From an uncultured beta proteobacterium (GTDB taxonomy: Bacteria; Pseudomonadota; Gammaproteobacteria; Burkholderiales; SG8-39), in NCBI GenBank assembly GCA_903859155.1, contig CAIOLO010000107.1, positions 3,177 to 67,176 on the forward strand: 64,000 nucleotides of DNA. Direction: 5' to 3'. The position numbers and the translations under genes were made by a program. The notes beneath the pieces are model-generated. The model saw nothing but the letters and a program-made list of their open reading frames with translations. It did no database searches and was not told where the DNA came from. This document shows, in pieces, positions 1,472 to 19,334 of this stretch (positions are counted from its first letter, which is position 1; each line of letters begins with the position of its first letter).

Positions 1472-1906
1472 ATGGGATCGATACATCTTTTTCGCGATTT
1501 GCCTGAAATCAAGACGTACGCCGCAGGCGAGTACATCTTCCGCAAGGGGGAACAAGGGTCGGCGATGTACATGGTTATCGAAGGCGACATCGAACTGGTG
1601 GTCGGCAGGCTGGTCGTGGAAACGGCGCGTCCCGGCGCTTTCATCGGCGAGATGGCGTTGATCGATGACGCAACGCGCAGCGCCTCGGCACGCGCCAAAA
1701 ACGACGCGCGCGTGTTCCCGATCGATGAGGTGCGGTTTCAGTCGCTGGTGAAGGAGAACCCCTCGTTCGCCCTGGATGTCATGAAGGCGCTGGCGCTGAG
1801 GCTGCGGCGCACCAACGAGAAGGTCGCCTCCCGGCATGCCGCCCCGGTGCGCCGGCGCGTCGCCTCGCCAGCGCCGGTCAAACGCAAGACGCGGCGCGCG
1901 CGCTGA
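1472..1906 (+). CDS. cyclic-nucleotide-binding (Crp-type cNMP) domain protein without HTH
   Basis: AAGEYIFRKGEQGSAMYMVIEGDIELVV ... FIGEMALID ... RSASARA fits the cNMP-binding beta-barrel pattern. At 144 aa there is no DNA-binding domain, and the C-terminal tail is basic. Confidence 0.75.
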   Translation: MGSIHLFRDLPEIKTYAAGEYIFRKGEQGSAMYMVIEGDIELVVGRLVVETARPGAFIGEMALIDDATRSASARAKNDARVFPIDEVRFQSLVKENPSFALDVMKALALRLRRTNEKVASRHAAPVRRRVASPAPVKRKTRRAR

Positions 1907-2030
1907 GCCGGCCGCGGCGCTCCGCGATGACGGCTGGTCGAGGGCGGATGCGCCCCGGTACACCCGGGTAAAGCGAGTTGAAGTTGACCTGCCCCCACCG
2001 ATAAACGATTATTCAAAACTGAAATATTCC

Positions 2031-2699
2031 ATGAGTTCACAATCAATGCCGCCCAACATCAAGAGCAAAGTTGATGACACTGCGCTGGTTGCGCGCCGGC
2101 GCAGCCAGGTTCTGGCCGCGGCCATCGAACTGTTCGGCAAGCGCGGTTACCACCCGACCACCGTGCGCGAGATTGCCGAGCACGCCGGCCTGAGCACCGG
2201 CCTTGTCTATCAATATTTCGGTGACAAGGAGGACGTGCTCTACCTGGGATTGCAGACCGTGCTTGATTCCTACCGGGAGCGAATTCCGGCGGCAACCGAG
2301 GGCATCGCCGATCCGCTGGAGCGCTTCCGCGCGGCAGTGCACGCCTATTGCCGTGTCATCGACGCCAACATCGACGCCACCGTACTTGCTTACCGGGAGA
2401 CAAAATCGGTAAGCCCCAAGCGCCGCGGCGTCATCATGCAGAAAGAGGTCGAAACCAACGCGCTGATCGAGGCGGAGGTGCGCTCATGCGTCAAGGCGGG
2501 ACTGTTCGAGAAGACCGACGTGGGCCTGCTCACGTATCTGATTGTGATGTTCGCGCATGCCTGGGCGCTCAAGGCGTGGCATTTCCAGGGCCAGATGTCC
2601 GTGGAACAATATACGGACCGCAACCTGGCGCTGCTGCTCAATCCGGTATTGACCGAACGCGGACGGCGCGAGAACGTTAGGCTCGCCGCCGCCCGCTGA
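2031..2699 (+). CDS. TetR/AcrR family transcriptional regulator
   Basis: I trimmed the start to the internal ATG (MSSQSMPP..) of ORF 1836..2699. The N-terminal HTH is RRSQVLAAAIELFGKRGYHPTTVREIAEHAGLSTGLVYQYF. The upstream part of the track ORF is Arg/Ala-rich GC noise. Confidence 0.85.
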   Translation: MSSQSMPPNIKSKVDDTALVARRRSQVLAAAIELFGKRGYHPTTVREIAEHAGLSTGLVYQYFGDKEDVLYLGLQTVLDSYRERIPAATEGIADPLERFRAAVHAYCRVIDANIDATVLAYRETKSVSPKRRGVIMQKEVETNALIEAEVRSCVKAGLFEKTDVGLLTYLIVMFAHAWALKAWHFQGQMSVEQYTDRNLALLLNPVLTERGRRENVRLAAAR

Positions 2700-2754: not shown

Positions 2755-3609
2755 TCAGTTTCCTTCAAACACCGGCTTTTGTTTTGCCGCAAAGGCGCGA
2801 TAGGCCCTGCCGAAATCGAGTGTCTGCATGCAGATGGACTGGGCCTGGGCTTCGGCTTCGATGGCATCGTCGATGCCCATGGCCCACTCTTGATGCAGGC
2901 AGCTCTTGGTCATCGCATGGGCGAACGTCGGGCCGTCGGCGATCGAGCGTGCCAGAGCCTGGGCTTCGCTGAGCAGGGTGTCGGAGGCGCACAGCTTGTT
3001 GAAGAATCCCCAGTTTTGCGCTTCCGTGCCATCGATGGCGCGGCCGGTGTACAGGAGTTCAGACGCCCGGCCCGAGCCGATGATGCGCGGCAGCATGTTG
3101 CAGGCGCCCATGTCCGCGCCGGCGAGCCCGACGCGCACGAAGAGGAACGCCACCTTGCTGGTTGCCGTGCCGTAGCGCAGATCCGAGGCCATGGCGACGA
3201 TCGCTCCGGCTCCGGCGCATATGCCGTCGACCGCGGCAATGATAGGCTGCGGACATTTGCGCATCGCCTTTACCAGGTCGCCGGTCATGCGGCAGAAAGC
3301 GAGCAAACCGCCCATGTCGCCTTCTTCCTGGAGCTTGACCAGCGGGCCGATGATCTCGTGCACATCGCCACCCGAGCAGAAATTGCCGCCCGCGCCGTTC
3401 ACCACGATGGTTTTCACGTTGTCGGCGTAGGTCAGATTGCGGAATGTGTCGCGCAGCTCGGCGTACGACTCGAAGGTCAGCGGATTCTTGCGCTCGGGCC
3501 GGTTGAGCGTAATGGTGGCAACCTTGCCGTCGAGTCGCCAGCCGAAATGCTTGGGTTCGAAACGGGTGAAGTCGACATTGGCGGGGGCGAACAGGTCTTG
3601 CGTCTTCAT
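2755..3609 (-). CDS. enoyl-CoA hydratase/isomerase (crotonase) family protein
   Basis: 284 aa. Carries [24 protein letters not shown] and [22 protein letters not shown], the crotonase oxyanion-hole motifs. Confidence 0.85.
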
Positions 3610-3673
3610 GGGGTGATCCTCTCTAGCATTGGTGAATGGGTGGGTGGCTATGCGGGCATGGCGTGTGCGGGCA

Positions 3674-4420
3674 TCAGCCGACCATGGTCAGGCCGCCGCT
3701 GACGCTCAGCACCTGTCCGGTGACGAAGTTGGAGCCCGATCCGGAGAAGAACAGGATGGCCTCGGCCACTTCCTCGGGTTTGCCGAGGCGCCGGAACGGG
3801 ATGGCCTTCACGATTGCCTCGTGAACTTTTTCCGGCACCGCCGCCATCAGCGGCGTGTCGGTAGGACCAGGGCAGACGCAGTTGACATTGACGTTGAAGC
3901 GCGCGCCTTCGCGGGCAAGCCCTTTGGTAAACGCAATCAATCCGCCTTTGGCGGCCGAATACACCGTCTCGCCAAGGCTGCCGACACGGCCGGCGTCGCT
4001 GGAGACGTTGACGATCTTGCCACCGCCAGCGTCGTACATGGGCTGGATCAGCGCGCGCGTCAGGCGAATCGGCCCCATAAGGTTGATGGCCATCAACTTG
4101 TCCCAGAATTCCGGGGTGTTCTTGACAAAGGGCTCGGTGCGGCCCCAGCCGGCCACGTTGACCAGGATGTCGACACGGCCGGTTGATTTCAGGGCCTGCT
4201 CGGCGAACCGGGCGATGGATGCGACATCGGTGACGTCGAGCGCAAGGAATTCCGCCTTGTGGCCCGCCGCCTTGATTTCGCTGGCAACGGCTGCGCCCGC
4301 CTGTTCATTGATGTCGGCGACGAAAACATGTGCGCCGTTGGCCGCAAGCAGTTTTGCGGTTGCTTTGCCGATACCCGAGGCGCTGCCGGTGACTACCGCT
4401 GTCTTGTTTTCCAGATTCAT
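3674..4420 (-). CDS. short-chain dehydrogenase/reductase, BadH/FabG-like
   Basis: 248 aa. Has the [10 protein letters not shown] Rossmann motif, NVSS and the catalytic YSAAKGG (YxxxK). Its start is 3 nt from the stop of the upstream crotonase gene. Confidence 0.85.
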
Positions 4421-4422
4421 GA

Positions 4423-5205
4423 TTACTCCTTGTCAATGTTTTTGGGCCGCGCGGCGCCCGCGAGAAAAGCCGCTACGCGCTCGCGCGTGGCGGCGTTGCC
4501 ATAAAGCTGCCGCGAGGCGGCGAGCTCTTCGGTGTATCCGTCGCGCGACGGATCGTGTGCTGCCTTGATGCAGGATTTGCAGGCGGCCAGTGCCGCCGCC
4601 GGCAAAGCGGCGATTCCCGCGGCGATTTGTGCCGCCCGCGCGGCCAGTTCGGATCCCGGTGCCGACCACTGGACCAGGCCGAGCGCCTGGGCGGTCGCGC
4701 CGTTGGCCATCTCGCAGGTGAGGATCATGCGGGAAGCGATGGCCGTGCCGGCCAGTCTGGTCATGCGCTGCGTGCCGCCCGCGCCGGGGATCAGGCCCAG
4801 GCGTGCCTCGGGCAGACCCAGGTTCGCCTCGGACGCGGCGATGCGCAGGTCACAGGCCAGCGCTAGTTCCATTCCTCCGCCCAGGGCGGCGCCGCCGATC
4901 TCGGCAAGCGTCACCTGCGGCAGGGCTTCGATGCGCGCGAAAAGTTTTTGCATGGCCTCGGCCGCGCCGACCATCGCATCGACGCCGTCCGCCGCGTTGA
5001 AACGACCGCGCATTTCCGCCAGGTCCGCGCCGGCACAAAAAACCTTCTGACTGCTTCTGATATGCAGCACGTGCCAGTCCTCGCGGCCGGCGAGTTCGTC
5101 GAGCACACGCCCGAAAGCCACCAGCCAGTCCGCATTGATGGCATTGACCGGCGCCCTGTCCAGAGTCAGGCAGGCGACCCGGTTAGTGCACTCAAGTTTC
5201 AGCAT
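4423..5205 (-). CDS. enoyl-CoA hydratase/isomerase (crotonase) family protein
   Basis: I trimmed the start to the ATG (MLKLECTNRVACLTLDRAPVNAI) of ORF 4423..5241, whose first codon is TTG. Carries FCAGADL and GGAALGGGMELALACDLR motifs. Confidence 0.8.
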   Translation of the reverse strand: MLKLECTNRVACLTLDRAPVNAINADWLVAFGRVLDELAGREDWHVLHIRSSQKVFCAGADLAEMRGRFNAADGVDAMVGAAEAMQKLFARIEALPQVTLAEIGGAALGGGMELALACDLRIAASEANLGLPEARLGLIPGAGGTQRMTRLAGTAIASRMILTCEMANGATAQALGLVQWSAPGSELAARAAQIAAGIAALPAAALAACKSCIKAAHDPSRDGYTEELAASRQLYGNAATRERVAAFLAGAARPKNIDKE

Positions 5206-5261
5206 CGCGGTCTCGCTTTCTGGTGGATTTGCACACCGCAATCGACTAGCATTTCATCGAT

Positions 5262-8319: not shown

Positions 8320-8777
8320 AACGACTTGTTTCGCTTTGGCTCAACGGGAAGCGCCGCGAGGATGCGGTAGCTGATAACCTGTTGTTGATCGACTATGTTC
8401 GCGAGACCGCCGCTCTGACCGGCACCAAGTGCGGTTGCGACGGCGGCGAATGCGGCGCCTGCACCGTGCTGATCGACGGCGAGCCGCGACTGGCCTGCAT
8501 GACGCTCACGGCGACTTGCGATGGCAAGCGCGTCGAGACCATCGAAGGGCTTGCCGTAGGCGGCACGCTCTCTTCGCTGCAGCAGGCATTCCACGAAAAA
8601 CTCGGCACCCAGTGCGGTTTCTGCACGCCGGGGATGATCATGGCGGCTGAAGCGCTGTTGCGGCGCAACGCCAGTCCGAGCGAAGAAACCATCCGTGAGG
8701 CGCTTTCCGGAAATCTTTGCCGCTGTACGGGCTACGTAAAAATCATCGAGTCGGTAAAGGCAGCGTGCGAGCCATGA
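8316..8777 (+). CDS. hcrC: [2Fe-2S]-binding small subunit of a xanthine-dehydrogenase-family reductase (4-hydroxybenzoyl-CoA reductase gamma-like)
   Basis: 153 aa. Carries GCDGGECGACTVLIDG, CGFCTPGMIM and CRCTGY, i.e. two [2Fe-2S] motifs. The ATGA overlaps the ligase stop. Confidence 0.75.
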   Translation: MKRLVSLWLNGKRREDAVADNLLLIDYVRETAALTGTKCGCDGGECGACTVLIDGEPRLACMTLTATCDGKRVETIEGLAVGGTLSSLQQAFHEKLGTQCGFCTPGMIMAAEALLRRNASPSEETIREALSGNLCRCTGYVKIIESVKAACEP

Positions 8778-11128
8778 GCGAAATTCTTTCCCCGAAACCC
8801 ATGGGCGCGACAATTGCCGCGCACCCGGTCGGCCGGCGCCAGCCGCTGATCGACGGCATCGAAAAAGTGACCGGCCGTGCGCGCTATACCGCGGACCTTG
8901 CCGCGACGCAGGCGTTGACGGGTGTCATCCTGCCCAGCCCGCACGCGCACGCCGAGATCGTGAGCATCGACGTATCGCGCGCCCGGGCGCTGCCCGGTGT
9001 GCGCGCGGTCATCACCGGCGACGATTGTGACGTGCCCTTTGGCATCCTCCCCATTGCCCGCAACGAGTACCCGCTGGCGCGCGGCAAGGTGCTCTATTGG
9101 GGCGAGGCCGTTGCGGCGGTCGCAGCCGATGACGAGCAGACCGCGCTCGCCGCGCTCGCATTGATCGAGGTCGAATACCGGTTGCTGCCCGTCTATACGC
9201 ATGCGGCCGAGGCGCGCGCGCCCGACGCGGTGCTGCTGCATGCGAACAAGCCCGGCAACATGGAGCGCGAGGTCAGCAATTCCTTTGGCGACGTCGATGC
9301 CGGATTCGCCGCGGCGGACCTGGTGCGCGAGGAGAGCTTCCACTACGCGGAAGTGGCGCACGGGCAGATCGAGCCGGATTGCGCGGTGGCGGAATTCGAG
9401 CCCTCAAGCGGCAGGCTCACCGTGCAGTCGGTATCACAGGTGCCGTACTACGTGCACCTGACGATTTCCGAATGCCTGAAGATGGATCCGGCCGACGTGC
9501 GGGTGATCAAGCCATTCGTCGGCGGCGGCTTCGGTCACCGCACCGAGACGCTGCCCTTCGAGGTGACCGCGGCGCTGCTGGCGCGTGCGGCGCGCGGCGC
9601 GGTGAAACTGCAGCTCTCGCGCGCCGAGACCTTCACCATCCACCGGGCGCGACCCGAGACCGACATACGCCTGAAGATCGGCATGAAGAAGAGCGGCGAG
9701 ATCACCGCGGTCGAGGCGGAGGTGGTGCAGCGCGGCGGAGCGAGCGCCGGCTACGGCATCATCACCATCCTGTACGCGGGGGCGCTGCTGCACACGCTTT
9801 ATCGCATGCCGGCGGTCCGCTACCGCGGCTTTCGCGTTTATACCAACACGCCACCCTGCGGACCGATGCGCGGCCACGGCGGCGTGGACATGCGCCACGC
9901 CTTCGAGTCGCTGATGGACATGATGGCTGCGACGTTCGGCCTGGATGCGTTCGCGGTGCGCCGCGCCAATCTTTTTGTCGCGCCGTACCAGACGATGAAC
10001 GAGCTGAAGGTGAGCACCTGTGAACTGGCCGCCTGCCTGGACTGGGTGGAGGAGGCCTCCGGATGGCGCAGCCGCAAGGGCAAGCTGCCGCGCGGCCGCG
10101 GCCTGGGGGTGGCGTGCTCGCATTTCATTTCGGGCGCGGCCAAGCCGGTGCACTGGACCGGCGAGCCGCATGCCACCGTGAATCTGCGCCTTGACTTCGA
10201 TGGCTCGATCACGCTGCTCACCGGCGCGGCCGATATCGGGCAGGGTTCCTCCACGCTGCTCGCGCAGATTGCCGCCGAAGTGCTGGGCCTGGAGCTGTCG
10301 CGGTTTCGCGTCATCGCGGGCGACAGCGCGCTCACGCCCAAGGACAACGGCTCCTACTCCTCGCGCGTGTCGCTCATGGTCGGCAACGCGGCGCTTGCGG
10401 CTGCCGAGGAACTCAAGCGCCAGTTGGTTGCGGCGGCGGCCAAACGCCTGGAGGTGGGCGTCGAGGAGGTCGAATGTCTGGGCGAGGCCTATCTCGTCAC
10501 CGGCACTGACCGCATGGCCTCCTATCGCGACGTCGTCAAGAGCGCGCTGGAGGTCACCGGGCCGCTCACCGCGCGCGGCACCTACACCGTGCCGCTTGAA
10601 TTGCAGGGGGGCAAGTACCGTGGCGCCGGCGTGGGTCCGAGCCCGGCGTATTCGTATGCCGCATCGGTGGTCGAGGTGTCGGTCGACGAGGACACTGGCG
10701 AGATAAAGGTTGAAAAAATGTGGGTGGCGCAGGATTGCGGCGTCGCCATCAACCCGCTGTCTGTCGAAGGCCAGGTGCAGGGTTCGGTCTGGATGGGAAT
10801 GGGACAGGCGCTGTGCGAGGAAACCGAATTCATGGACGGCCGGCCGATGCGCGGCAATCTCCTGGATTATCGCGTGCCGACCATCGTCGAATCGCCCCCC
10901 ATTGAAGTGAAGATCATCAAAGCCTACGAGCCCAATGGGCCCATGGGCGCCAAGGAGGCGAGCGAAAGCTCGCTGGGGAGCATTCCTCCGGCGCTCGCGG
11001 CAGCGGTCGCCGAAGCGATCGGCGTGCGCCTGCCCGGATTGCCGCTCTCGCCCGATCGCGTGCTTGCGGCGATTCAGGCGCGTCGCCGCGATGAGCGGCT
11101 CAAGTCGGCATTAGGGGGGGCAAGCTGA
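8774..11128 (+). CDS. hcrA: molybdopterin-binding large subunit (4-hydroxybenzoyl-CoA reductase alpha-like)
   Basis: I trimmed the start to the ATG at 8774 (MSEILSPKP), which overlaps the hcrC stop. The 784-aa product shows aldehyde oxidase/xanthine dehydrogenase a/b-hammerhead and MoCo-domain patterns (VTGRARYTAD, GGGFG, ECGVAINP-like QDCGVAINP). Confidence 0.75.
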   Translation: MSEILSPKPMGATIAAHPVGRRQPLIDGIEKVTGRARYTADLAATQALTGVILPSPHAHAEIVSIDVSRARALPGVRAVITGDDCDVPFGILPIARNEYPLARGKVLYWGEAVAAVAADDEQTALAALALIEVEYRLLPVYTHAAEARAPDAVLLHANKPGNMEREVSNSFGDVDAGFAAADLVREESFHYAEVAHGQIEPDCAVAEFEPSSGRLTVQSVSQVPYYVHLTISECLKMDPADVRVIKPFVGGGFGHRTETLPFEVTAALLARAARGAVKLQLSRAETFTIHRARPETDIRLKIGMKKSGEITAVEAEVVQRGGASAGYGIITILYAGALLHTLYRMPAVRYRGFRVYTNTPPCGPMRGHGGVDMRHAFESLMDMMAATFGLDAFAVRRANLFVAPYQTMNELKVSTCELAACLDWVEEASGWRSRKGKLPRGRGLGVACSHFISGAAKPVHWTGEPHATVNLRLDFDGSITLLTGAADIGQGSSTLLAQIAAEVLGLELSRFRVIAGDSALTPKDNGSYSSRVSLMVGNAALAAAEELKRQLVAAAAKRLEVGVEEVECLGEAYLVTGTDRMASYRDVVKSALEVTGPLTARGTYTVPLELQGGKYRGAGVGPSPAYSYAASVVEVSVDEDTGEIKVEKMWVAQDCGVAINPLSVEGQVQGSVWMGMGQALCEETEFMDGRPMRGNLLDYRVPTIVESPPIEVKIIKAYEPNGPMGAKEASESSLGSIPPALAAAVAEAIGVRLPGLPLSPDRVLAAIQARRRDERLKSALGGAS

Positions 11129-12108
11129 TGGCACGGCTTCAGGAATTCGTATTGCGCCGTCCCGAGAGCATCGAGGAGGCCGTGGGTCAGCTGGCCGCTG
11201 AACCGGAGGCCCGCGTGATCTCAGGCGGTACCGCGCTGATTGCCAACCTGCGCCTCGGACTCGGGAGTCCGGCGGCGCTGATATCGCTGGAGCGCGTTTC
11301 CGGCATGGACCGGATCGAGGTTTCGGCCAAGGAGATGCGCTTTGGCGCCGGTGTCACCGTCGCGCGCCTGGCCACGGATGACGCCGTGCGCGCGAAACTG
11401 CCGGCGCTTGCCGCAGCCGCGCTGACCGTGGCCGGACCCTCGCACCGCAGCGTTGCCACCATCGGCGGGAATCTGTGTCTCGATACGCGTTGCGTCTACT
11501 ACAATCAGAACGAAACCTGGCGCAGTTCCAATGGCTATTGCCTGAAGTACCGCGGCGATATCTGTCATGTGGCGCCCCAGGGCAAGCGCTGCCACGCGGC
11601 ATACAGCGGCGACCTTGCGCCGGTGCTGCTGGTATTGCAGGCCGGCATCGCCGTCGCGGGAGCGGCGGGCGTGCGGCGCATGCCCCTGGCCGGTTTGTAC
11701 CAGGAAGACGGCGCGCATCATCTGACCCTCGCGCAAGGCGAGTTCGTCTCGGAAGTCAGCGTGCCGCTGCCCGCCGCGGGCATGCGCGTGGCCTATCGCA
11801 AGGCGCGCGTGCGCGGTGCCATTGATTTTCCGCTTGCCGGGGTTGCCATGGCGCTTCGCATGAGCGAAGGACGCGTCGCCGAGTTGCATGTGGCGCTGAC
11901 CGGTACCAATTCACAGCCCATGCTGCTCACCGGGACCGAGGAGTGCCGCGGCGCAAGCGTCGACGAGGCTCTCGCCGACAAAGTGGGAAAACTGGTGCAG
12001 CGACAGGCAAGCCCGCAACGCACCACCGTGACCACCTCCAATTACCGGCGCCAGGTCGCCACCGCCTATGCCCGCAGGCTGATATTGGAGCTTGCGGCGG
12101 CCAACTGA
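11128..12108 (+). CDS. hcrB: FAD-binding medium subunit with Cys-rich insertion (4-hydroxybenzoyl-CoA reductase beta-like)
   Basis: 326 aa with a CoxM/XdhB-type FAD domain (ISGGTALI, ATIGGNL). It carries an inserted loop CLDTRCVYYNQNETWRSSNGYCLKYRGDICHVAPQGKRCH. An extra [4Fe-4S]-binding loop in this subunit is the known hallmark of 4-hydroxybenzoyl-CoA reductase. The gene order C-A-B matches hcrCAB. Confidence 0.7.
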   Translation: MARLQEFVLRRPESIEEAVGQLAAEPEARVISGGTALIANLRLGLGSPAALISLERVSGMDRIEVSAKEMRFGAGVTVARLATDDAVRAKLPALAAAALTVAGPSHRSVATIGGNLCLDTRCVYYNQNETWRSSNGYCLKYRGDICHVAPQGKRCHAAYSGDLAPVLLVLQAGIAVAGAAGVRRMPLAGLYQEDGAHHLTLAQGEFVSEVSVPLPAAGMRVAYRKARVRGAIDFPLAGVAMALRMSEGRVAELHVALTGTNSQPMLLTGTEECRGASVDEALADKVGKLVQRQASPQRTTVTTSNYRRQVATAYARRLILELAAAN

Positions 12109-12185
12109 TTGCACCCGCCACCTATCAGCAATCGAGCAAGTCATCGTGGCGTGACGCCGCCAGGCAGTAACAAGGAGGAAAGCCT

Positions 12186-15100
12186 GTGAAGCTTTTTGAG
12201 CAATTCAATATCCGTGGCATGGTGATTCCCAACCGGGTCATGGTGCCCGCCATGGTGACGCACCTTTGCAAGGAAGACGGCTACGTCACCGACGCCATTA
12301 TCGAGCGCTACGAGCGCTATGCGTTCGGTGGCGCGGGTCTCATCGTGGTGGAGGCCATGGCGGTGCACCAGGTGAAATCCGGACCTCTGCTGCGCATTTC
12401 CGATGACCGTTACATCCCGGGCCTGCGGCGGCTGACCAGTCGCGTACACCAGGCATCCGACTCGAAAATCGTGCCCCAGATCATCCATTTCCTCAAGGTG
12501 GCGCGCTCGGGCTGGCGGCAAACCGTGGACATGCTGACCGAGGAGGAGATCGACCTCATCGTCGAGCAGTTCGGTGACGCCGTGGCGCGCGCGCGCGAGG
12601 CGGGGTTCGACGGCGCCGAGCTGCATTCCGCGCACGCCTACACCCTGTCGTCTTTCCTGTCGCGCAGCAACGCGCGCACCGATCAGTACAGCGGGCAAAC
12701 GCTCGAAGGCAGGCTGCGACTCATCGAGCGCGTCATCGAGAACGTGCGCAGCAAGGCGGGCGAAGACTTTCCGGTTGGCATACGCTTCAACGGCGAGGAG
12801 TTCATCAAGGACGGCTATACCGTACGCGAATCCAAGTTGATCGCGCTCAGGCTGGCGCAGCTGGGCTTCGATTATCTGTCGATGTCCGCGGGCGGGAAGT
12901 TCGAGGACGCGGTACACGCCGAGGGGCAGGTGCTCTATCCCTATACCGGCTATTCGGGTGACCGCTGCATGCCAGGCGAGGGCTATCCGCAGGGGTTGCA
13001 TGTGCCGATTGCGCACGAGGTCAAGGCTTTTCTGCTGGAGCATCGCCTGACCACGCCGGTGGCCATCGCCGGCAAGATTTCGGAGCCGGCGCTGGCCGAG
13101 AGTGTGATTGCCGGCGGCAGCGCCGACATCGTTGGAATTGCGCGCGGCCTGCTTGCCGATCCGGATTGGCCCAGAAAGGTCAAGAAGGGTGAATTCGACC
13201 GCGTGGTTCAATGCGATTACTGCAATGTCTGCAAGGCGCTGGATGGCACCCACCAGACCGTGGTTTGCCACCTCTGGCCCCAGGGAACGATCCAGGCGCC
13301 GCCGGACGCCGGTGGTGAGCCCGCACCACGATGGCCGCAGGGCGGGGCGGATGCCGGCAGTGAGCCCCTGCTCACTGCGGACTTCAAGGACGGTCGGGTG
13401 TTGCTGCGCTGGAAAAAGGCGCCAGGCGCGGTGTACTACAACGTATTCCGTTCCGATGCGGCGTCCCCGCCGCAGTTGGCTGACGCGGTGAAGGTCACCC
13501 GCTGGACCGATCAAACGGTGCTGGCCGGGGCGCAATATCGCTATTTCGTTCGCGCCTGCACCGCCTTTGGCCTGGCGAGCGGTCCCAGCAACGAGATCGT
13601 GCTGGACATTCCGCGCCACGAGCGCGTGGTCCCCTCGAACCGTCCCGATCTCCTGCCGGGGTTCGTTCCCTGGCCGGAGGAATTCGCGCGCCGCTATCGC
13701 GAGGCCGGGTTGTGGGAAGGCATCACGCTTTTCGGCATGCTGGAGCGCGCGATGCGCCGCGATCCGGGCAAGATAGTGATTGTCGATGGCGAGCGTCAGG
13801 TCACTTACGCGGCGCTCATCGCTTACGTCGAGCGGCTGGCGGCGGCATTCCTCGCCGCGGGCCTGCAGCCGCGCGAACGGGTGGTGTTCCAGTTGCCCAA
13901 CGGGCTGGAGATGATCGCGGCATTTTTCGCGCTGACGCGCATCGGCGTCATCCCCGTGCTGGCCTTGCAGGCACACCGGCGCAACGAGATTGCGCACTTC
14001 CTGAAAAATGCGGGAGCGGTGGCGTATCTCATTCCGGAGGCGGTGCGTGACTTCGATTACCGGCAACTCGCCGTGGAAGTCGCCGAAGATTATCCCGCGC
14101 TGCGCTCGGTGATCGTGTTCGGCGAGGCGGGCCCGGGGCAGCTCGCCGTGAGCGAGTTGCTGGCGCGCGCCGAGTCGGCCCCCGCGGTACTGCCGGCGGG
14201 ACCGCGCGCCTCCGAAGTCGCCTTCATGCTGCTCTCAGGCGGCACCACCGGGCTGCCCAAGCTGATCGCGCGCACGCATGATGACTATGTCTGCAATTTC
14301 CGCGAAACCGGGCGAGTGGCCGGCTATGGCAGCGACACCATATATCTGGCCATCGCGCCGATGGCGCACAACTACACGCTGGGGTGTCCGGGCGTCTGCG
14401 GAGTTTTCCTGGTCGGGGGCACCGTCATCATCGCCGGCGCCAGCGACGCGGATACGGTGTGCTCGCTGGTGCAGGAGTGGCGCGTGACCCACGTGGGTGG
14501 CGCGGTGCCGCTGGTGTCGCGCTGGCTCGCCTCGGACGCGGACAAACGCTACGACCTGCACTCGCTGCGCGTGTTTTTCAGCGGCGGGGCCAAGCTCCCG
14601 CCCGAGATGCGCCGTCGTGTGGAGGAGCGCTTTGGCTGCACCTACCTGGAAAATTTCGGCTGCGGCGAAGGCCTTATCAACATCGTACCCAGGGGATCCT
14701 CCGAGTATGTGCGCATGCACAGTTCGGGCCGTCCGGTATGCGATGCCGATGAAATCAAGGTCATCGACGACGACGAGAACGAGGTGCCGCTCGGCCAATT
14801 GGGCGAGCTGGCGTGCCGGGGGCCTTACACGATCCGCGGTTACTACGATTCGCCGGCGGTGAATGCAAGCGGCTTTACCGCCGATGGTTTCTACAAGATG
14901 GGCGACGTGGTGCGTCTGGTGGATGGCGACATCTATCTCGAGGGACGCAAGAAAGACCTGATCAACCGCGGCGGAGAAAAGATCAGCTCCGAGGAAGTGG
15001 AGAATTTCATCGTCGCGCACCCCGCGGTGCATTCCGCGTGCGTGGTGTCGATGCCGGACGCGGTGTTCGGCGAGAAGGCCTGTGCTTTCGTGATGCTGCG

Positions 15101-15290
15101 CGAGGGCGCCACGCTCGACTTCAAGGAGTTGAGCTCGTTCCTGACCGAGCGCGGCATCGCCAAGTTCAAGCTGCCCGAGCGCCTGGAACTGGTCAGTGAA
15201 TTTCCCATGAGCCCGGCGGGAAAAGTATTGCGGCGCGATCTGCGCGTGATGATTGCCGAGAAGTTGGCGGCCGAAGGCGGCAGGCGATGA
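12186..15290 (+). CDS. tri-domain fusion: OYE-type FMN/[4Fe-4S] oxidoreductase, Fn3-like domain, EntE/DhbE-type aryl-acid adenylating (CoA) ligase
   Basis: An uninterrupted 1034-codon frame starts at GTG, preceded by AAGGAGG. The N-terminal part has an OYE pattern (FNIRGMVIPNRVMVPAM, HSAHAYTLSSFLS) followed by CDYCNVCKALDGTHQTVVC. The middle shows LLRWKKAPGAVYYNVFRS..YRYFVRA, which looks Fn3-like. The C-terminal part has WPEEFARRYREAGLW, SGGTTGLPK and GEKISSEEVE. Confidence 0.85.
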   Translation: MKLFEQFNIRGMVIPNRVMVPAMVTHLCKEDGYVTDAIIERYERYAFGGAGLIVVEAMAVHQVKSGPLLRISDDRYIPGLRRLTSRVHQASDSKIVPQIIHFLKVARSGWRQTVDMLTEEEIDLIVEQFGDAVARAREAGFDGAELHSAHAYTLSSFLSRSNARTDQYSGQTLEGRLRLIERVIENVRSKAGEDFPVGIRFNGEEFIKDGYTVRESKLIALRLAQLGFDYLSMSAGGKFEDAVHAEGQVLYPYTGYSGDRCMPGEGYPQGLHVPIAHEVKAFLLEHRLTTPVAIAGKISEPALAESVIAGGSADIVGIARGLLADPDWPRKVKKGEFDRVVQCDYCNVCKALDGTHQTVVCHLWPQGTIQAPPDAGGEPAPRWPQGGADAGSEPLLTADFKDGRVLLRWKKAPGAVYYNVFRSDAASPPQLADAVKVTRWTDQTVLAGAQYRYFVRACTAFGLASGPSNEIVLDIPRHERVVPSNRPDLLPGFVPWPEEFARRYREAGLWEGITLFGMLERAMRRDPGKIVIVDGERQVTYAALIAYVERLAAAFLAAGLQPRERVVFQLPNGLEMIAAFFALTRIGVIPVLALQAHRRNEIAHFLKNAGAVAYLIPEAVRDFDYRQLAVEVAEDYPALRSVIVFGEAGPGQLAVSELLARAESAPAVLPAGPRASEVAFMLLSGGTTGLPKLIARTHDDYVCNFRETGRVAGYGSDTIYLAIAPMAHNYTLGCPGVCGVFLVGGTVIIAGASDADTVCSLVQEWRVTHVGGAVPLVSRWLASDADKRYDLHSLRVFFSGGAKLPPEMRRRVEERFGCTYLENFGCGEGLINIVPRGSSEYVRMHSSGRPVCDADEIKVIDDDENEVPLGQLGELACRGPYTIRGYYDSPAVNASGFTADGFYKMGDVVRLVDGDIYLEGRKKDLINRGGEKISSEEVENFIVAHPAVHSACVVSMPDAVFGEKACAFVMLREGATLDFKELSSFLTERGIAKFKLPERLELVSEFPMSPAGKVLRRDLRVMIAEKLAAEGGRR

Positions 15291-15578
15291 CTGGCGCATG
15301 GCGCCAGGCTGCTGCTGGATGACACCGACGTCCCATAAAGCGCGCGCCGCATGTTGGAAGCAGCGCGGCGAGGCTTTTGCCGCGCGTTATTATCCCAATA
15401 TTAAATTGAAATCGACATACGATATATGTCAAGTATCGGTATAAAACAATAATTGTTTATAATTATGGAAACCATCGCCTGACTCGGGCGACGCCTGTCG
15501 GCGGTAAAAAGAGTTGCCTGGTAGCGTTGAAGTAGTCCAATAAGGGCCGCCCAAAAAGCTGCGCCTGTTGCAGAATTT

Positions 15579-16004
15579 CTAGCGCTGCATCTTTTCCGCC
15601 ACCGGGCTGCCCGCGTTGCGATGCTTCTCGACCAGCTTGAGCATCGTCTCGATGGTGATCGACCCGAAAGTCGCTTTGGTGATTTCGTCGATTTCCGATA
15701 GCACTTGCGCAAGCGCGGTTTCCACCTCGTTGCGCTCCCCGTTGCCGTTTCCCGATTCGACGGTTTGCTCGAACAGTTCGATCACGTCGAGCAGCGTCAG
15801 GCGCTTGGGGTTGCCGGCGAAGCGGTAGCCCCCGCCGACGCCGCGCACCGAATCGAGCAATCCGGCGCGGGCCAGGTCTGCCAGGACTTTCGACAGGTGG
15901 TGAAGCGATACGCCGTACTTGGCGGCGATTTCGGCTGCAGTCACCGGACGCCCCGGATTCGCCGCGAATTCCAGCGTGCTGTACAGCGCAAGGCTGGTGG
16001 CCAT
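15579..16004 (-). CDS. Rrf2 family transcriptional regulator (no Cys cluster motif)
   Basis: I trimmed the start to the ATG (MATSLALYSTLEFAA) inside ORF 15579..16151. The winged HTH is AAEIAAKYGVSLHHLSKVLADLARAGLLDSVRGVGGGYRFA. Confidence 0.8.
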   Translation of the reverse strand: MATSLALYSTLEFAANPGRPVTAAEIAAKYGVSLHHLSKVLADLARAGLLDSVRGVGGGYRFAGNPKRLTLLDVIELFEQTVESGNGNGERNEVETALAQVLSEIDEITKATFGSITIETMLKLVEKHRNAGSPVAEKMQR

Positions 16005-16012
16005 CTGCAGCT

Positions 16013-16480
16013 TCAATCGAGGCTCATTTCCAGCGTTATGACCGGCGCTGCCATCATGCCCTGGCTGCGCACGAACGACAGCATCAGGTTGTTGTCGCGC
16101 GAGACCTGGGTGCGTACTGTATCGACACCGGCGTGCCGGAACCCGGCGCATATTGAATCGAACAGTTTCGTGCCCAGCCCGGCCAGTCGGGCGCCCGGGC
16201 GCACGTCGATGGCGAATACCCAGCCGCAGGACGGTGAGCCAAACTCCCAGTCCCTCACCTCGCCGATGATGAAGCCCTGGATCGTGCCCTCCGATTCGGC
16301 GACCAGAAACAAGCGCTGGCGCGAGTGCCCGGTGCCGAAGCGATGGAACAGTTCGTACCAGTAATCGGTTTTTTGAATACCGGTGCTTTCCGCATCGATG
16401 GCAATCACCTGACCCAGGTCGGCCGCTTCGACCGGGCGGATCACTATGGCGGTGGTGTCCTTTAAGTCCGCAGACGTCAT
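16013..16480 (-). CDS. GNAT family N-acetyltransferase
   Basis: 155 aa. IRPVEAADL...LFLVAESEGTIQGFIIG...RLAGLGTKLF fits the GNAT acetyl-CoA-binding motif A (R/Q-x-x-G-x-G/A). Confidence 0.75.
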   Translation of the reverse strand: MTSADLKDTTAIVIRPVEAADLGQVIAIDAESTGIQKTDYWYELFHRFGTGHSRQRLFLVAESEGTIQGFIIGEVRDWEFGSPSCGWVFAIDVRPGARLAGLGTKLFDSICAGFRHAGVDTVRTQVSRDNNLMLSFVRSQGMMAAPVITLEMSLD

Positions 16481-16499: not shown

Positions 16500-16727
16500 T
16501 CACTGTTGCGCAGGCGAGTTCTGCAGTCGCCGCGCGTTGCCCGCGCAGATCGCCGCGCATTCGGCGGCGTTGTCCGCGTAGAACTGATGCAAGTAGTCGA
16601 CAGGGCGCATTTTCATGTTTTTCTCCAGCAGGTCGTTCGCCGGCGCCTGTTCGAGGCGCGAGAGCAGCGCGATCACAGTCTCATGCTCCTCGTGAAGCTT
16701 GCGGCTGATCTGCCTGCGAAATTGCAC
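16500..16727 (-). CDS. small hypothetical protein downstream of fdx (start uncertain)
   Basis: The C-terminal part of ORF 16500..16850 does not overlap fdx. A possible GTG start gives VQFRRQISRKLHEEHETVIALLSRLEQ... I recognised no family, so coding status is unproven. Confidence 0.3.
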   Translation of the reverse strand: MQFRRQISRKLHEEHETVIALLSRLEQAPANDLLEKNMKMRPVDYLHQFYADNAAECAAICAGNARRLQNSPAQQ

Positions 16728-16750
16728 GGCCTGCCCACCTGGAGACAGGC

Positions 16751-16993
16751 TCAGGTGTGCAGCTGGGCGTATTTGGCCAGCAGTTCCTCGTTGGATTCCT
16801 TGAAGTCCGGATTCTCGGGGATGCAGTCGGCCGGGCAAACGAGCTTGCATTGCGGCTCGTCTTCAGCGCCCACGCATTCGGTGCATTTAAGCGCGTCGAT
16901 CACGTACGGCGTGCCCTTGGTGATTGCTTCGTTGGGGCAAACGGGCGCGCAGGCGTCGCATTCGGTGCAATCCTGGGTAATCATCAGTGCCAT
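16751..16993 (-). CDS. fdx: 2x[4Fe-4S] ferredoxin (benzoyl-CoA reductase electron donor type)
   Basis: 80 aa. Has [12 protein letters not shown] and [15 protein letters not shown] cluster motifs. It sits directly downstream of bcrD, as in Thauera-type clusters. Confidence 0.9.
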
Positions 16994-17038: not shown

Positions 17039-17887
17039 TCAGACCGCGGCAAGGGCTTCAAGTTCGGCGAGCTTGCGATGGCGGAAGGCGCCCCAGATTG
17101 CGGCGCCTATGGCGCCGGCGTAAATCGAGTCGGGGTGGCTCATGGCCTGGATGCCGGTTATTTTTTCGGTGACCAGTTCTTCCTGCAGCGCGGCCAGAAG
17201 GCCGACATCGAGCGCGAGCCCCCCGGTGAGCAGCACGGTGCCCTGGGTGATCCCGGTGACCTTGAGCAGCTTGGCCAGGCGCGATGCCATCGAGAGGTGG
17301 ATTCCCTTCAGGATGTCGGCGGTGGCAATGCCGCGCGAGACCATGTTGATGACGTCGGTCTCGGCCAGCACGGCGCAGATCGAACTCGGCTTTTCGGGAG
17401 TCTGGGAGGTCTTGGACAGCGGGCCGATTTCCTCGATCGCCACGCCCAGGTAGCGCGAAATGTTCTCCAGAAACTGGCCGGATCCCGAGGCGCACTGGCT
17501 GGTCATCTTGGAGGCGAGCACCTTGCCGCGTTCATCGACAAAGATGGCGCGGCCATTGAGCGCGCCGATGTCGACCACCGCCTTGGCCTCGGGGCACAGG
17601 AACACGCCGCCGCGCGCATGCGTGGTCATGGAGTAGAAATGTCCTGTGGCGAATTTGACGTTCTCGCCCTCGCCGGTGGTCGCGGTGTACTGAATATCCT
17701 CCGGTTTGAGCTTCGCTTCCTCCAGAACCTCTTCGTAGCTCGAGCGGGCAAGGTCCATGGCGATCCGCTGGCGGATGCGCTCTACGCGCTTGGCCACCCA
17801 TTCGGTCTTGCCGCCCTCCTGGCGGAACAGTACGGTCTTGACCGCGCCGGAGCCGATGTCGATGCCAATGCTGGTAATTGCGCTCAT
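17039..17887 (-). CDS. bcrD: benzoyl-CoA reductase subunit D (BcrAD/BadFG ATPase family)
   Basis: 282 aa. Has the GIDIGSGAVKTVL actin-like ATPase phosphate-1 motif and CASGSGQFLENI. Its size and position after bcrA fit the delta subunit. Confidence 0.9.
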   Translation of the reverse strand: MSAITSIGIDIGSGAVKTVLFRQEGGKTEWVAKRVERIRQRIAMDLARSSYEEVLEEAKLKPEDIQYTATTGEGENVKFATGHFYSMTTHARGGVFLCPEAKAVVDIGALNGRAIFVDERGKVLASKMTSQCASGSGQFLENISRYLGVAIEEIGPLSKTSQTPEKPSSICAVLAETDVINMVSRGIATADILKGIHLSMASRLAKLLKVTGITQGTVLLTGGLALDVGLLAALQEELVTEKITGIQAMSHPDSIYAGAIGAAIWGAFRHRKLAELEALAAV

Positions 17888-18010
17888 GTCCTCGCCTCCG
17901 ATCGGATGGTTGCTGTTTTAGACACCGAGCTGTCGGCTCGCGAGGCCATTCGCTGCTGTCGCATCCACGCTGCGCGGGGCCCCTGCTTGGCGCTCATGTC
18001 CTCGCCTCCG
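17880..18010 (-). repeat. 21-nt direct repeat pair at the bcrA/bcrD junction enclosing a 37-codon micro-ORF
   Basis: The plus-strand sequence gcgctcatgtcctcgcctccg occurs at 17880-17900 and again at 17990-18010. On the coding strand each copy reads CGGAGGCGAGGACATGAGCGC, i.e. RBS plus ATGA. Confidence 0.85.
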
Positions 18011-19334
18011 CTGTTTTGCCTTCCTCGACCACGGCGCGCCAGGCGAAGGTCGCCCCGCCGAGCGCACCGGTGTAGATCGACTCGGGGTTGATATTGAGGG
18101 TCAGCTCGCCGTAGTTTTCGCGGACGAGATCCTTGAGTGCCTTGACCGCGGCCTCGTTCTTGGCGACGCCGCCGGTGAAGGTGAATTCGTTGCGGATGCC
18201 GCCCGAGCGGGCGAGGATCGACATGGCTCGCAGGATGATGGCGCGGTGCAGTCCGGCCATGATGTCTTCGCGCTTGTCACCCAGCGACAGCCGGTCGCGC
18301 AGTTCGGCGCCGGCAAACACGGTGCAGGTCGAGTTGATGCGCACCGTCTTGGTTGCTTTCATCGCGAGCGGCCCCAGTTCGTGCAGGCCCATGTTCATTT
18401 CATCGGCGATGTAGCCCAGGTAGCGGCCGCAGCCGGCGGCGCAGCGGTCGTTCATCTGAAAGCTCTCGACGATGCCGTGCTTATCAACCTGAATGGCCTT
18501 GGTGTCCTGGCCGCCGATATCGAGAACGGTCGCGGTGCCGGCGTGCATCATATGCGCCCCCAGGCCGTGACACAGAATCTCCGAGCGGATGTGCTCCTTG
18601 GAAAACGGCAGGCGCGCGCGGCCGTAGCCGGTGCCCACGGTGTAGGTCTCCTCCAGCGCCGTGTCCAGAACGCTCTTTATCGGGGCGCGAACCGCGTCGC
18701 CGCGGCTGGCGGTTTCGGGCATCGCCAGGAAAGTGCGATCCAGTGCCGCCAGCAGGTTGGCGCTGATGGCGTCGCCGTACACCCGGTTCTCCACTTCGAT
18801 GATGGAGCGGTCGAATACGTTGACCAGCATGTCGTAGCGCATGCCGGCCTCCTTGGCAACCTGCTCGCCGATGGCAAGGTAGCGGCTGCCGGCGATGTCG
18901 CGAAAGAAGTCGGATTTGCGCTTGGCCCCCGGGGCGAACAGTGCCGGGGCTTCGGCGCGCAGCCGCTTCAATACCTCGGTGAGCGCGGAGGAGACGGCCT
19001 TGCCGGCGTCGCCGAAGCGGCTGCCCTCGGCGTTGCGCTGGCAGGTGGTCTCGAGGTCGGACAGTTGCACCAGGAACTGCTCTAGCCGGAAATCGCGCTC
19101 GAGCTGGGCCAGGAAATCCTCGAGGGCGCCGTTGAGCGCGCCGGAACTGGACAGCGCCTGGCGAAACAGAAAGAAACGCGCGTTGACCAGTGCTTCCTGC
19201 TGGGCGATCTTGGCCGCAGTATCGTAATTCGAGCGCGAATTGGTGATGCCGCGGCCGATGACATTCTGGTTCTCGTCGATAACCACCGCCTTGGTGGTGG
19301 TGGATCCCAGGTCAATCCCTATGAAGCAGCGCAT
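17994..19334 (-). CDS. bcrA: benzoyl-CoA reductase subunit A (BcrAD/BadFG ATPase family)
   Basis: 446 aa. Carries [25 protein letters not shown] and [16 protein letters not shown]. The long insertion between the ATPase motifs is typical of the alpha subunit. Confidence 0.9.

Follow-up and report, generated by a model that had tools for sequence, protein, structure and literature searches.

The reduction of benzoyl-CoA needs ATP or bifurcation. To our knowledge, the genes for the anaerobic reductive removal of ortho-amino or ortho-hydroxy groups from benzoyl-CoA have never been identified, and the 2-aminobenzoyl-CoA and salicyl-CoA reductase activities measured in denitrifiers have never been assigned to genes. 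For this removal, a review describes enzyme activity only (PMC4539516). In the aerobic CoA-dependent pathways of anthranilate and salicylate (PMC4539516; PMC4600096), the ortho-substituted benzoate is first converted into its CoA thioester, a step that an EntE-type salicylyl-AMP ligase performs in WA46, and in the ACMR and SdgC systems the aryl-CoA ligase is combined with an enzyme whose C-terminal half is of the Old Yellow Enzyme (OYE) type. The present analysis concerns a stretch of 64,000 nucleotides from an uncultured betaproteobacterium of the order Burkholderiales (assembly GCA_903859155.1, contig CAIOLO010000107.1; the whole stretch is hereafter called the window), in which a single gene codes for a 1034-aa polypeptide that joins an OYE-type reductase module to an EntE-type aryl-acid ligase.

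This protein is best described as a new OYE architecture, consisting of an FMN barrel, an Fe-S motif and a fibronectin type III (Fn3) domain and devoid of FAD- and NAD(P)H-binding domains, which is here fused to a catabolic ligase of the EntE clade. The fusion unites two genes that adjoin in many bacteria, and it is genuine but rare. There is, in our judgement, an even chance that it works as a bifunctional “activate-then-reduce” enzyme for an ortho-substituted benzoate, a reading in which substrate, catalytic direction and electron donor are all deduced from sequence and gene context. The C-terminal domain would adenylate the acid, most likely 2-hydroxy- or 2-aminobenzoate, perhaps bearing another polar substituent at C4 or C5, and transfer it to CoA. 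The N-terminal FMN/[4Fe-4S] module would then hold the aroyl-CoA by its His-His pair, and its reduced FMN would donate a hydride to the ring, at the carbon beta to the thioester; the flavin would be re-reduced via the Fe-S cluster, plausibly by the ferredoxin and the 2-oxoacid:ferredoxin oxidoreductase (KGOR-like) encoded alongside. Two fates can be proposed for the product. Ammonia or water would be eliminated to yield benzoyl-CoA for the adjacent benzoyl-CoA reductase (BCR), which would match the denitrifier activities and the location beside BCR; or the beta-enamino or beta-keto cyclohexene-carbonyl-CoA would be kept, deaminated by RidA and passed on to a short-chain dehydrogenase/reductase (SDR2), an enoyl-CoA hydratase (ECH) and an acyl-CoA dehydrogenase (ACAD), which would explain the conserved neighbours in clusters without BCR. 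The Fn3 domain would, speculatively, probably serve as a docking or oligomerisation surface.

Integrity and rarity of the fusion

An initial annotation of this DNA had described one uninterrupted frame behind a strong ribosome-binding site and, within it, an OYE domain, a Cys motif, an Fn3-like domain and an EntE-type ligase. Every element of that description is present (Table 1), the GTG start lying 7 nt behind the AAGGAGG sequence and five fused orthologs starting at the corresponding residue. Among the Pfam families that the annotation had named, PF00724 (146 bits, cut-off 27), PF00501 (233 bits, aa 519-887) and PF13193 (aa 937-1013) are found on the fusion protein, while PF00041 (fn3) has no match at E<=0.1.

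An assembly or sequencing artefact, be it a chimeric join or a missed stop codon, was considered solely for the rarity of the architecture, since no evidence in its favour was found, and its probability is negligible. The exact same protein is present on four contigs, and a different ENA assembly (L084) differs from the window at 3 of 7105 nt, none of them inside the ORF, which is the same. Five orthologs of 65-91% identity, drawn from ENA, JGI and NCBI assemblies, keep the continuous frame and the synteny, and the GC content at third codon positions is uniform over the three parts of the gene (0.81, 0.78 and 0.82). A chimeric join or frameshift was therefore rejected. Poor conservation among the fused orthologs is limited to the linker of about 18 aa between the Fn3 and ligase domains.

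In a word-indexed search of 5.8 billion proteins the fused architecture was returned as P0001-P0005 and no other, and it is confined to one betaproteobacterial clade. In an exhaustive HMMER search of 1.84 billion cluster representatives, dominated by A-domains of non-ribosomal peptide synthetases (NRPS) and by siderophore ligases, no match spanned both halves, the best representatives being ligase-only (P0122, 52% identity) or OYE+Fn3-only (P0123, 53%). The reductase module by itself is widespread: relatives that cover residues 1-476 are encoded in over 552 species-representative genomes, and the Ferrovibrio protein is matched at E<=1e-80 by no fewer than 3106 clusters (90% identity), all under generic names only, such as “NADH:flavin oxidoreductase”. 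It stands alone, with about 480 aa, in 80 of the 80 genome loci examined, and its carriers belong to the Alpha- and Betaproteobacteria, Planctomycetota, Acidobacteriota, Myxococcota and Chloroflexota, including cultured Ferrovibrio, Marinibaculum and Oceanibacterium. Other fusions join the module to an SDR (P0011, P0016), an ACAD (P0013) or a PaaA-like protein (P0009). A protein of 816 aa (P0294, L089:9001-11451) carries behind OYE+Fn3 a C-terminal solute-binding domain of the NMT1/phosphonate-binding type, which is unexpected for a cytoplasmic redox enzyme. The literature searched contains no description of a ligase-OYE fusion, as the annotation had also remarked, nor of an OYE+Fn3 family or of genes for anaerobic 2-aminobenzoyl-CoA or salicyl-CoA reduction.

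The ligase and reductase halves

The ligase domain, in which the WPEEFARRY signature begins at aa 496 and the core ANL motifs SGGTTGLPK, GEKIS and PAGK are present, has full-length matches in the PDB to the salicylate-AMP ligase 5wm2 (3e-146) and DhbE (2e-144), followed by PchD and EntE (range 1e-119 to 3e-146). For the C-terminal 540 aa, the nearest NCBIfam family is (2,3-dihydroxybenzoyl)adenylate synthase, with scores below the equivalog cut-offs (TIGR02275, 522.6 bits against 723.55; NF008192, 476.7 against 783). In DhbE numbering, the pocket reads H234 N235 Y236 G239 C240 N329 C332 G333 I337. Ser240 of DhbE reportedly contacts the 3-hydroxyl group of 2,3-dihydroxybenzoate (2,3-DHB). The residue is Cys in the window protein (HNYTLGCPG, compared with HNYPLSSPG in DhbE), as it is in 5wm2 and PchD. 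The salicylate enzymes CahJ (5wm2) and PchD combine C240 with hydrophobic residues at 329 and 337 (V/L), while here C240 is accompanied by N329, which is Ser in the orthologs, and by I337. Position 329 is polar (S, N or D) in most OYE-partnered ligases; DhbE, 5wm2 and the Thermincola ligases have Val there.

Three substrates had been proposed by the annotation, and they fare differently. 2,3-DHB is disfavoured by the score below the TIGR02275 cut-off and by the change of Ser240 to Cys. Salicylate is supported by Cys240, and anthranilate at least as well by the RidA, kynurenine-pathway and indoleacetate-like gene contexts set out below. The polar residue 329, together with the HcrCAB genes upstream, may leave room for a 4- or 5-substituted analogue.

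A siderophore or NRPS role of the EntE-like domain was rejected. No phosphopantetheine-site motif, carrier protein or NRPS was found in the 64-kb window, and its only giant ORF, of 2024 aa (47435-53509, + strand), codes for a protein with N-terminal RTX-type GGxGxD repeats and many cadherin/VCBS-like repeats, probably a secreted adhesin unrelated to the catabolic island. We infer that the ligase product is a CoA thioester: the conserved ECH, ACAD, SDR and 3-hydroxyacyl-CoA dehydrogenase (3HCDH) neighbours and the absence of a phosphopantetheine-binding motif and of NRPS from the window support CoA chemistry, and so does the gene pairing seen in Thermincola. The closest stand-alone representative of the ligase comes from a Thermincola metagenome-assembled genome (MAG), with 52-53% identity and 592 bits, compared with 491 for 5wm2. 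It is followed after 13 nt by a full-length ortholog of BamB, which scores 1046 bits against 4z3w and 221 against a true aldehyde oxidoreductase. In this Firmicute the pair seems to form a substrate-specific module of class II aryl-CoA reduction that has so far gone unreported, and genes for a second EntE-like ligase, a sigma-54 activator and an ABC transporter stand close to it. The pairing argues that this ligase clade is catabolic and that, in a strict anaerobe, its product goes to a ring reductase. OYE+Fn3 holds in Proteobacteria the position that BamB holds in Thermincola, which suggests, by analogy, that both serve the same pathway step, the reduction of the aroyl-CoA ring.

The AlphaFold2 model of aa 1-490 is a TIM barrel, and its top Foldseek matches are FadH (1ps9), TsER/thermophilic-like OYEs, XenA and the naphthoyl-CoA reductase NCR (6qkg). 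H147, H150 and Y152, the HxxHxY motif that comprises the substrate-binding pair and the proton-donor Tyr, are invariant in 12 family members, and the loops GGKFEDA (236-242) and PYTGYSGDR (252-260) are specific to the family and invariant in its alignment. In NCBIfam, three-domain Fe-S flavoenzymes such as BaiCD are matched by the N-terminal 357 aa over their first half only (for BaiCD, model positions 3-352 of 642); the FAD- and NAD(P)H-binding C-terminal domains are lacking, with no Pyr_redox or FAD-domain match, and the Cys motif is followed by the Fn3 fold and then by the ligase. All four motif cysteines align with cluster cysteines of histamine dehydrogenase (3k30, E 2.4e-8) and three of them with those of trimethylamine dehydrogenase (TMADH; 1djn, E 2.5e-10), the matches of this segment to FadH and NCR being weaker. 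C343, C349, C361 and the Fn3 domain are invariant in the family alignment, whereas C346 varies, one subgroup having G, W, A or N in its place. This three-Cys subgroup (L058-L082, P0008, P0010-P0013, P0016), in which the pattern is C.Y[GWAN]N.CK and the other three cysteines are invariant, may contain a [3Fe-4S] cluster, or one to which a residue other than Cys contributes a ligand.

The similarity of the Cys segment to TMADH and histamine dehydrogenase favours an oxidative or electron-transfer role, in which an intermediate bound to CoA would be oxidised at a C-N or C-C bond, the electrons would leave via the cluster towards an electron-transfer flavoprotein, the ACAD or 4-hydroxybenzoyl-CoA reductase, and RidA would hydrolyse the resulting imine. 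This would accord with the co-occurrence of RidA, with the ACAD that adjoins the module or is fused to it (P0013), and with the aerobic life of many carriers. However, the HxxHxY triad of ene-reductases is kept, the partner enzymes make aromatic CoA esters, which require reduction and not oxidation, and the BamB analogy also speaks against it, so that a role of this kind is quite unlikely.

The Fn3 domain, which the annotation had regarded as odd in a cytoplasmic catabolic enzyme, turns out to be the hallmark of a very large stand-alone OYE+FeS+Fn3 family. Residues ~400-480 match the solved “Fn3-like protein” 3mpc (phmmer, E 6.3e-7), the AlphaFold2 model of aa 378-482 has a pLDDT of 90.3 and retrieves only Fn3 domains from the PDB by Foldseek (TM 0.65-0.71; twitchin Fn31, CtXyl5A Fn3, human FN-III), and the family member P0314 has a precomputed PF00041 match. 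A sister OYE lineage (P0015, L085:9001-12111; P0027) shows the loops GGKFEDA...YPYTG.SG.ECMP and three cysteines, and lacks Fn3. It has been fused independently to a generic acyl-CoA ligase (1036 aa, beside thiolase-like, DUF35 and SDR genes) and also to an Oah-like ring hydrolase, which lends convergent support to an action of the wider clade on CoA esters.

Gene neighbourhoods and the weighing of functions

For the comparison of contexts, the ORFs of 82 loci and the window were clustered by all-against-all BLASTP and the recurrent families were named by Pfam; the surroundings of P0009, which lies on a short contig, and of P0023 yielded nothing informative. An aryl-CoA ligase lies within 3 kb of the module in 46 of the 83 loci, of the EntE type in 18 and of the Lig1 type (benzoate-CoA-ligase family) in 28. 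The recurrent companions are RidA (18 of 82 loci and the window), SDR, ECH, ACAD and MarR (39 loci). Three arrangements can be distinguished. In group A, which has the window's motif CDYCNVCK, the order is SDR - OYE+Fn3 - EntE-like ligase, or the ligase stands upstream; these ligases are 49-59% identical to the window's ligase domain, and at one locus (L091) the ligase start overlaps the OYE+Fn3 stop codon by 7 nt. In group B, with CIYCNVCK, the order is SDR - MarR - ECH - ACAD - OYE+Fn3 - benzoate-CoA-ligase-family ligase - ABC transporter, and orthologs of window genes recur there (ECH1, 67-79% identity; ACAD, 56-66%; Lig1, 51-60%). In group C, with three cysteines, RidA - ECH - (ACAD) - PaaA-like - OYE+Fn3 is continued by tryptophan 2,3-dioxygenase, kynureninase and an amidohydrolase, and through the dioxygenase and kynureninase, which occur together in 5 loci, these clusters make anthranilate. 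At another locus (L089), OYE+Fn3 follows RidA and a PaaA-like gene, with hydantoinase A/B, a PaaK-type ligase and a thiolase+DUF35 pair upstream, a set which we take to resemble the anaerobic indoleacetate (iaa) pathway. That pathway ends at 2-aminobenzoyl-CoA (PMC9613470).

Beside the OYE+Fn3/EntE-ligase pair of three group-A loci (L008, L013, L017), PPDK_N and PEP-utilizer genes (phenylphosphate-synthase-like), an Amidohydro_2 gene of the decarboxylase type, an IMPase-like gene and a MEDS/BTAD regulator are found, neighbours which could phosphorylate and ortho-carboxylate a phenolic compound. TctC receptors flank the pair in L007, L011, L012 and L017.

The set of ligase, ACAD, ECH and SDR resembles AliA/AliB/BadK/BadH, and in the window the ACAD is near cyclohexane-1-carbonyl-CoA dehydrogenase and SDR1 near BadH, all below the cut-offs. 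An alicyclic or other unsaturated acid, degraded by a variant of cyclohexanecarboxylate-type beta-oxidation, could thus be envisaged as substrate. It is nonetheless improbable, for enzymes of the benzoate-CoA-ligase family act on aromatic acids, as do those with the EntE fold, whose N235 is conserved and whose pocket is aromatic, and the kynurenine-pathway and BamB contexts indicate aromatic substrates.

A further alternative places the module after dearomatisation. BCR in the window, or PaaA-like and FAD oxygenases in aerobes, would dearomatise the CoA ester, and the OYE would reduce a C=C bond of the dienoyl- or enone-CoA, as does the OYE half of ACMR. This would be easy chemistry for an OYE, with precedent in ACMR and in salicylyl-CoA 5-hydroxylase/oxidoreductase; bcrCBAD, dch and oah lie 2-8 kb away, and the module is accompanied by PaaA-like genes in 5 loci (in addition to the fusion P0009) and by FAD hydroxylases in L005 and L021. 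Each of the latter two loci has two OYE+Fn3 copies with a FAD_binding_3 aromatic hydroxylase in between, which may be a split analogue of the monooxygenase+OYE enzymes ACMR and SdgC. Yet the 28 group-B loci keep the ligase, ACAD, ECH, SDR and OYE+Fn3, where the only candidate for dearomatisation is OYE+Fn3 itself; moreover, an Fe-S cluster would be superfluous for an ene reduction driven by NAD(P)H, and the equivalent position in Thermincola is held by BamB, a dearomatising subunit. The placement after dearomatisation is consequently unlikely.

The proposal that the fusion activates an ortho-substituted benzoate and then reduces it, which was already the logic of the annotation, is backed by the occurrence of the two halves as adjacent or overlapping separate genes in many genomes (a Rosetta-stone argument) and by neighbours that act on CoA esters. 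RidA, the kynurenine pathway and the iaa-like context support anthranilate; the EntE fold and Cys240 support an acid of the salicylate type, which the phenylphosphate-synthase-like and Amidohydro_2 genes near three group-A loci also suggest. A reductase role finds support in the invariant HxxHxY motif, in Cys residues homologous to known [4Fe-4S] ligands and in the Thermincola analogy; possible electron donors are the 2-oxoacid:ferredoxin oxidoreductases encoded near OYE+Fn3 in L019, L023, L077 and the window, and ACMR and SdgC provide precedents. Several points weigh against the proposal. To reduce a monocyclic aroyl-CoA directly by hydride is thermodynamically difficult, and we know only of the bicyclic naphthoyl-CoA as a substrate reduced by OYE-type enzymes. 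Many carriers are cultured aerobes without a conserved low-potential donor in the cluster; as electron donors beside OYE+Fn3, only these sporadic 2-oxoacid:ferredoxin oxidoreductases, one Pyr_redox_2 protein and the FAD hydroxylases were found. The second Cys is missing in several relatives, and the Cys segment is nearest to amine dehydrogenases, which work oxidatively. Genes that produce anthranilate occur in a minority of loci, mostly with the three-Cys subgroup and not with that of the window protein. Finally, the polarity of residue 329 is unlike that of the known salicylate enzymes, so that the acid actually used may be something other than salicylate or anthranilate.

A bolder generalisation, possible but doubtful, is that OYE+[4Fe-4S]+Fn3 proteins are unrecognised ATP-independent aroyl-CoA ring reductases for ortho-amino- and ortho-hydroxybenzoyl-CoA, which would stand behind the activities “2-aminobenzoyl-CoA reductase (deaminating)” and “salicyl-CoA reductase”. 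Hydride would be added at the beta ring carbon, after which either elimination would give benzoyl-CoA or hydrolysis, assisted by RidA, would give a 2-oxo-cyclohexene-carbonyl-CoA.

In the window, the arrangements of groups A and B are merged with HcrCAB, in the order TetR, the divergent ECH1-SDR1-ECH3, and ACAD-Lig1-HcrC-HcrA-HcrB-fusion (Table 1). No terminator-like site was seen inside the run from ACAD to the fusion, and the hairpin behind it is the probable operon end. This gene order is shared by all six fused orthologs with context, HcrCAB being immediately upstream in 6/6. The subunits of this Mo enzyme, which is of the 4-hydroxybenzoyl-CoA reductase type, pass their equivalog cut-offs (alpha 1169.8 against 994.6; beta 418.5 against 404.6; gamma 260.9 against 257.8), those of beta and gamma marginally, and with such narrow passes the enzyme may act on a hydroxybenzoyl-CoA other than 4-hydroxybenzoyl-CoA.

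Table 1. Coordinates of the fusion gene, its parts and the genes around it; positions refer to the window, except in the last row
Feature	Position	Strand	Remark
TetR-family regulator	1836..2699	+	position conserved in orthologous clusters
ECH1, PRK08258 type	2755-3609	-	67-79% identical to ECH beside OYE+Fn3 elsewhere
SDR1, BadH-like	3674-4420	-	
ECH3	4423-5241	-	divergent operon with ECH1 and SDR1 (2755..5241)
Acyl-CoA dehydrogenase (ACAD)	5405-6646	+	ortholog flanks stand-alone OYE+Fn3 in group B
Lig1, benzoate-CoA-ligase family	6643-8319	+	ortholog flanks stand-alone OYE+Fn3 in group B
hcrC	8316-8777	+	Pfam, NCBIfam
hcrA	8786-11128	+	Pfam, NCBIfam
hcrB	11128-12108	+	Pfam, NCBIfam
Shine-Dalgarno AAGGAGG	12172..12178	+	7 nt 5' of GTG
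Fusion ORF: OYE/FMN, [4Fe-4S] motif, Fn3 and EntE-clade aryl-acid ligase, 1034 aa	12186..15290	+	
OYE-type FMN TIM barrel, aa 1-340	12186..13205	+	PF00724, family alignment, AlphaFold2 model, Foldseek
Cys motif C343-x2-C346-x2-C349-x11-C361, predicted [4Fe-4S] site	13212..13268	+	alignment with TMADH and histamine dehydrogenase
Fn3-type beta-sandwich, aa 396-474	13371..13607	+	phmmer 3mpc, AlphaFold2, Foldseek
Variable inter-domain linker, aa 475-492	13608..13661	+	coincides with stop/start junction of unfused relatives
EntE-clade adenylate-forming aryl-acid ligase, aa 493-1034	13662..15290	+	Pfam, NCBIfam, PDB matches
Terminator-like hairpin, 10 bp	15363..15385	+	3' of fusion gene
Rrf2-family regulator and GNAT acetyltransferase	15579-16480	-	between fusion gene and bcr genes
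2x[4Fe-4S] ferredoxin	~16566-16808	-	
bcrCBAD	17039-21998	-	
Dch-like and Oah-like ECHs (hydratases)	22003-23894	-	
KGOR-like 2-oxoacid:ferredoxin oxidoreductase	24045-26704	+	
Rubrerythrin-like gene	26701-27309	+	before RidA
RidA	27334-27729	+	translationally coupled with SDR2
SDR2	27726-28502	+	ortholog of SDR coupled to OYE+Fn3 elsewhere
3-Hydroxyacyl-CoA dehydrogenase (3HCDH)	28499-30013	+	translationally coupled with SDR2
EntE-like “DHB-AMP ligase”, then BamB ortholog	9001-12645		Thermincola sp. MAG GCA_032027005.1 (L087)

The position of HcrCAB immediately upstream in the six fused orthologs, with no terminator-like site in between, together with the marginal HcrB and HcrC scores, which would allow a substrate other than 4-hydroxybenzoyl-CoA, could be read differently, with the ligase supplying salicyl- or dihydroxybenzoyl-CoA, the HcrCAB-like enzyme dehydroxylating it and the OYE module acting as an accessory, for example in electron input. 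But the OYE+Fn3/ligase pair is conserved in dozens of genomes without HcrCAB, and so its function cannot depend on that enzyme; HcrB, judged by its equivalog match, already has an Fe-S entry module. Such a division of labour is very unlikely. No HcrCAB set was found in any of the 80 other genome loci (0/80), where isolated weak matches to the Mo subunit or the 2Fe-2S protein occur in 4 loci only. The cooperation with an adjacent HcrCAB-like reductase that the annotation had put forward would thus be specific to the fused lineage, and the module was rejected as a dedicated HcrCAB partner in its general function, the pair occurring without HcrCAB in all other genomes. A gene for an EthD-domain protein of 222 aa stands between hcrB and the fusion in three orthologous clusters (L001:9304-9975, L002:9299-9967, L090:2940-3608), but the window and its 91%-identical relative lack it, and there only 78 nt separate hcrB from the fusion.

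An operon of RidA, SDR2 and 3HCDH, which had not been mentioned in the annotation, lies 12 kb downstream of the fusion. The ferredoxin, bcrCBAD, the Dch-like and Oah-like hydratases and the KGOR-like enzyme stand between the two and are possible partners in electron supply and in the pathway. SDR2 is the closer counterpart of the SDR coupled to OYE+Fn3 elsewhere, with 43-62% identity compared with 30-43% for SDR1. The Rrf2, GNAT and rubrerythrin-like genes, as well as a hemerythrin gene that the 91%-identical relative also has in this region, may protect oxygen-sensitive reductases or sense redox state.

Further downstream are four UbiD-family genes (30040-31539, 31601-33178 and 35727-37298, - strand; 38408-39940, + strand), a 794-aa double family-III CoA-transferase (33306-35690, -) and an IclR regulator (37339-38157, -), and the UbiD and CoA-transferase region (30040-39940) presumably resembles anaerobic phthalate-type modules, which combine a CoA transferase with a UbiD-like decarboxylase. 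The first of these UbiD proteins (30046-31473, -) is 81.5% identical to one from an alphaproteobacterial MAG (L011:4410-5927), whose gene adjoins an OYE+Fn3/EntE-ligase pair; the OYE+Fn3 proteins themselves are 64% identical, a difference which suggests horizontal transfer and a functional link of the (de)carboxylase with the ligase/OYE pair. Genes for an HpcH aldolase and an FAA hydrolase (40150-41877) and for three TctC-family (Bug) solute-binding proteins (42009-46839) follow.

Significance and relation to known systems

The fusion and its unfused relatives provide a concrete candidate for the removal of ortho groups from benzoyl-CoA and expose a very large OYE subfamily behind the label of an NADH:flavin oxidoreductase, which appears to be tied to the catabolism of anthranilate and salicylate, compounds of importance in the turnover of tryptophan and auxin, in plant and quinolone signalling and in the degradation of pollutants. 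If the proposed ring reduction were true, a monocyclic aroyl-CoA would be dearomatised with no need of ATP, and the OYE-type (class III) aryl-CoA reductases would no longer be limited to naphthoyl-CoA; if it held for the whole family, an oxygen-independent, CoA-dependent route for anthranilate (from tryptophan and auxin) and salicylate would exist in thousands of bacteria, aerobes included, with the window protein as its ligase-fused form. That a cytoplasmic redox enzyme carries an Fn3 domain, and that the module has repeatedly been fused to ligase, SDR, ACAD and PaaA-like proteins, suggests a multi-enzyme assembly.

Compared with described enzymes, the window protein combines familiar parts in an unfamiliar way. 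Like the aerobic CoA-dependent pathways, it would begin by converting an ortho-substituted benzoate into its thioester, and like ACMR and SdgC it brings together an aryl-CoA ligase and an OYE-type enzyme. The match to the corresponding family (NF006101, ACMR/salicylyl-CoA 5-hydroxylase-oxidoreductase) is restricted to the OYE half (model positions 536-727, 134 bits against a cut-off of 1078); the FAD monooxygenase half is missing, a [4Fe-4S] motif and Fn3 are added, the partner in the fusion is a ligase and not an oxygenase, and the gene stands in an anaerobic (bcr/hcr/kor) island.

With FadH, NCR (a class III aryl-CoA reductase) and cyclohexa-1,5-dienoyl-CoA oxidase it shares an FMN TIM barrel with a Cys motif for [4Fe-4S] directly behind it, and likely CoA-thioester substrates, whereas Fn3 takes the place of the C-terminal FAD/NAD(P)H domains, and the classical HxxHxY motif, which FadH is not known to share, is kept along with the family's own loops. 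TMADH and histamine dehydrogenase give the best match for the Cys segment, with the spacing C-x2-C-x2-C-x11/12-C, but they oxidise amines and have an ADP-binding domain, which the window protein lacks, while it keeps the ene-reductase residues.

On the ligase side, EntE and DhbE (2,3-DHB) and the CahJ/PchD/MbtA-type enzymes (salicylate) show full-length homology, the WPEEF signature, the core ANL motifs and N235 in common with the fusion, Cys240 being that of the salicylate enzymes. In contrast to these siderophore ligases, the fusion's ligase scores below the family cut-offs, has a different pocket (G239, N/S329, C/T332, G333), is found without a carrier protein or NRPS in a catabolic context, and has its closest relatives beside OYE+Fn3 or BamB. 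BamB, the catalytic subunit of class II benzoyl-CoA reductase, occupies the same position after an EntE-clade ligase in an anaerobic aromatic-acid cluster; it belongs to an unrelated family, the tungsten enzymes of the aldehyde:ferredoxin oxidoreductase (AFOR) type, so that its correspondence with OYE+Fn3 is one of position and function only.

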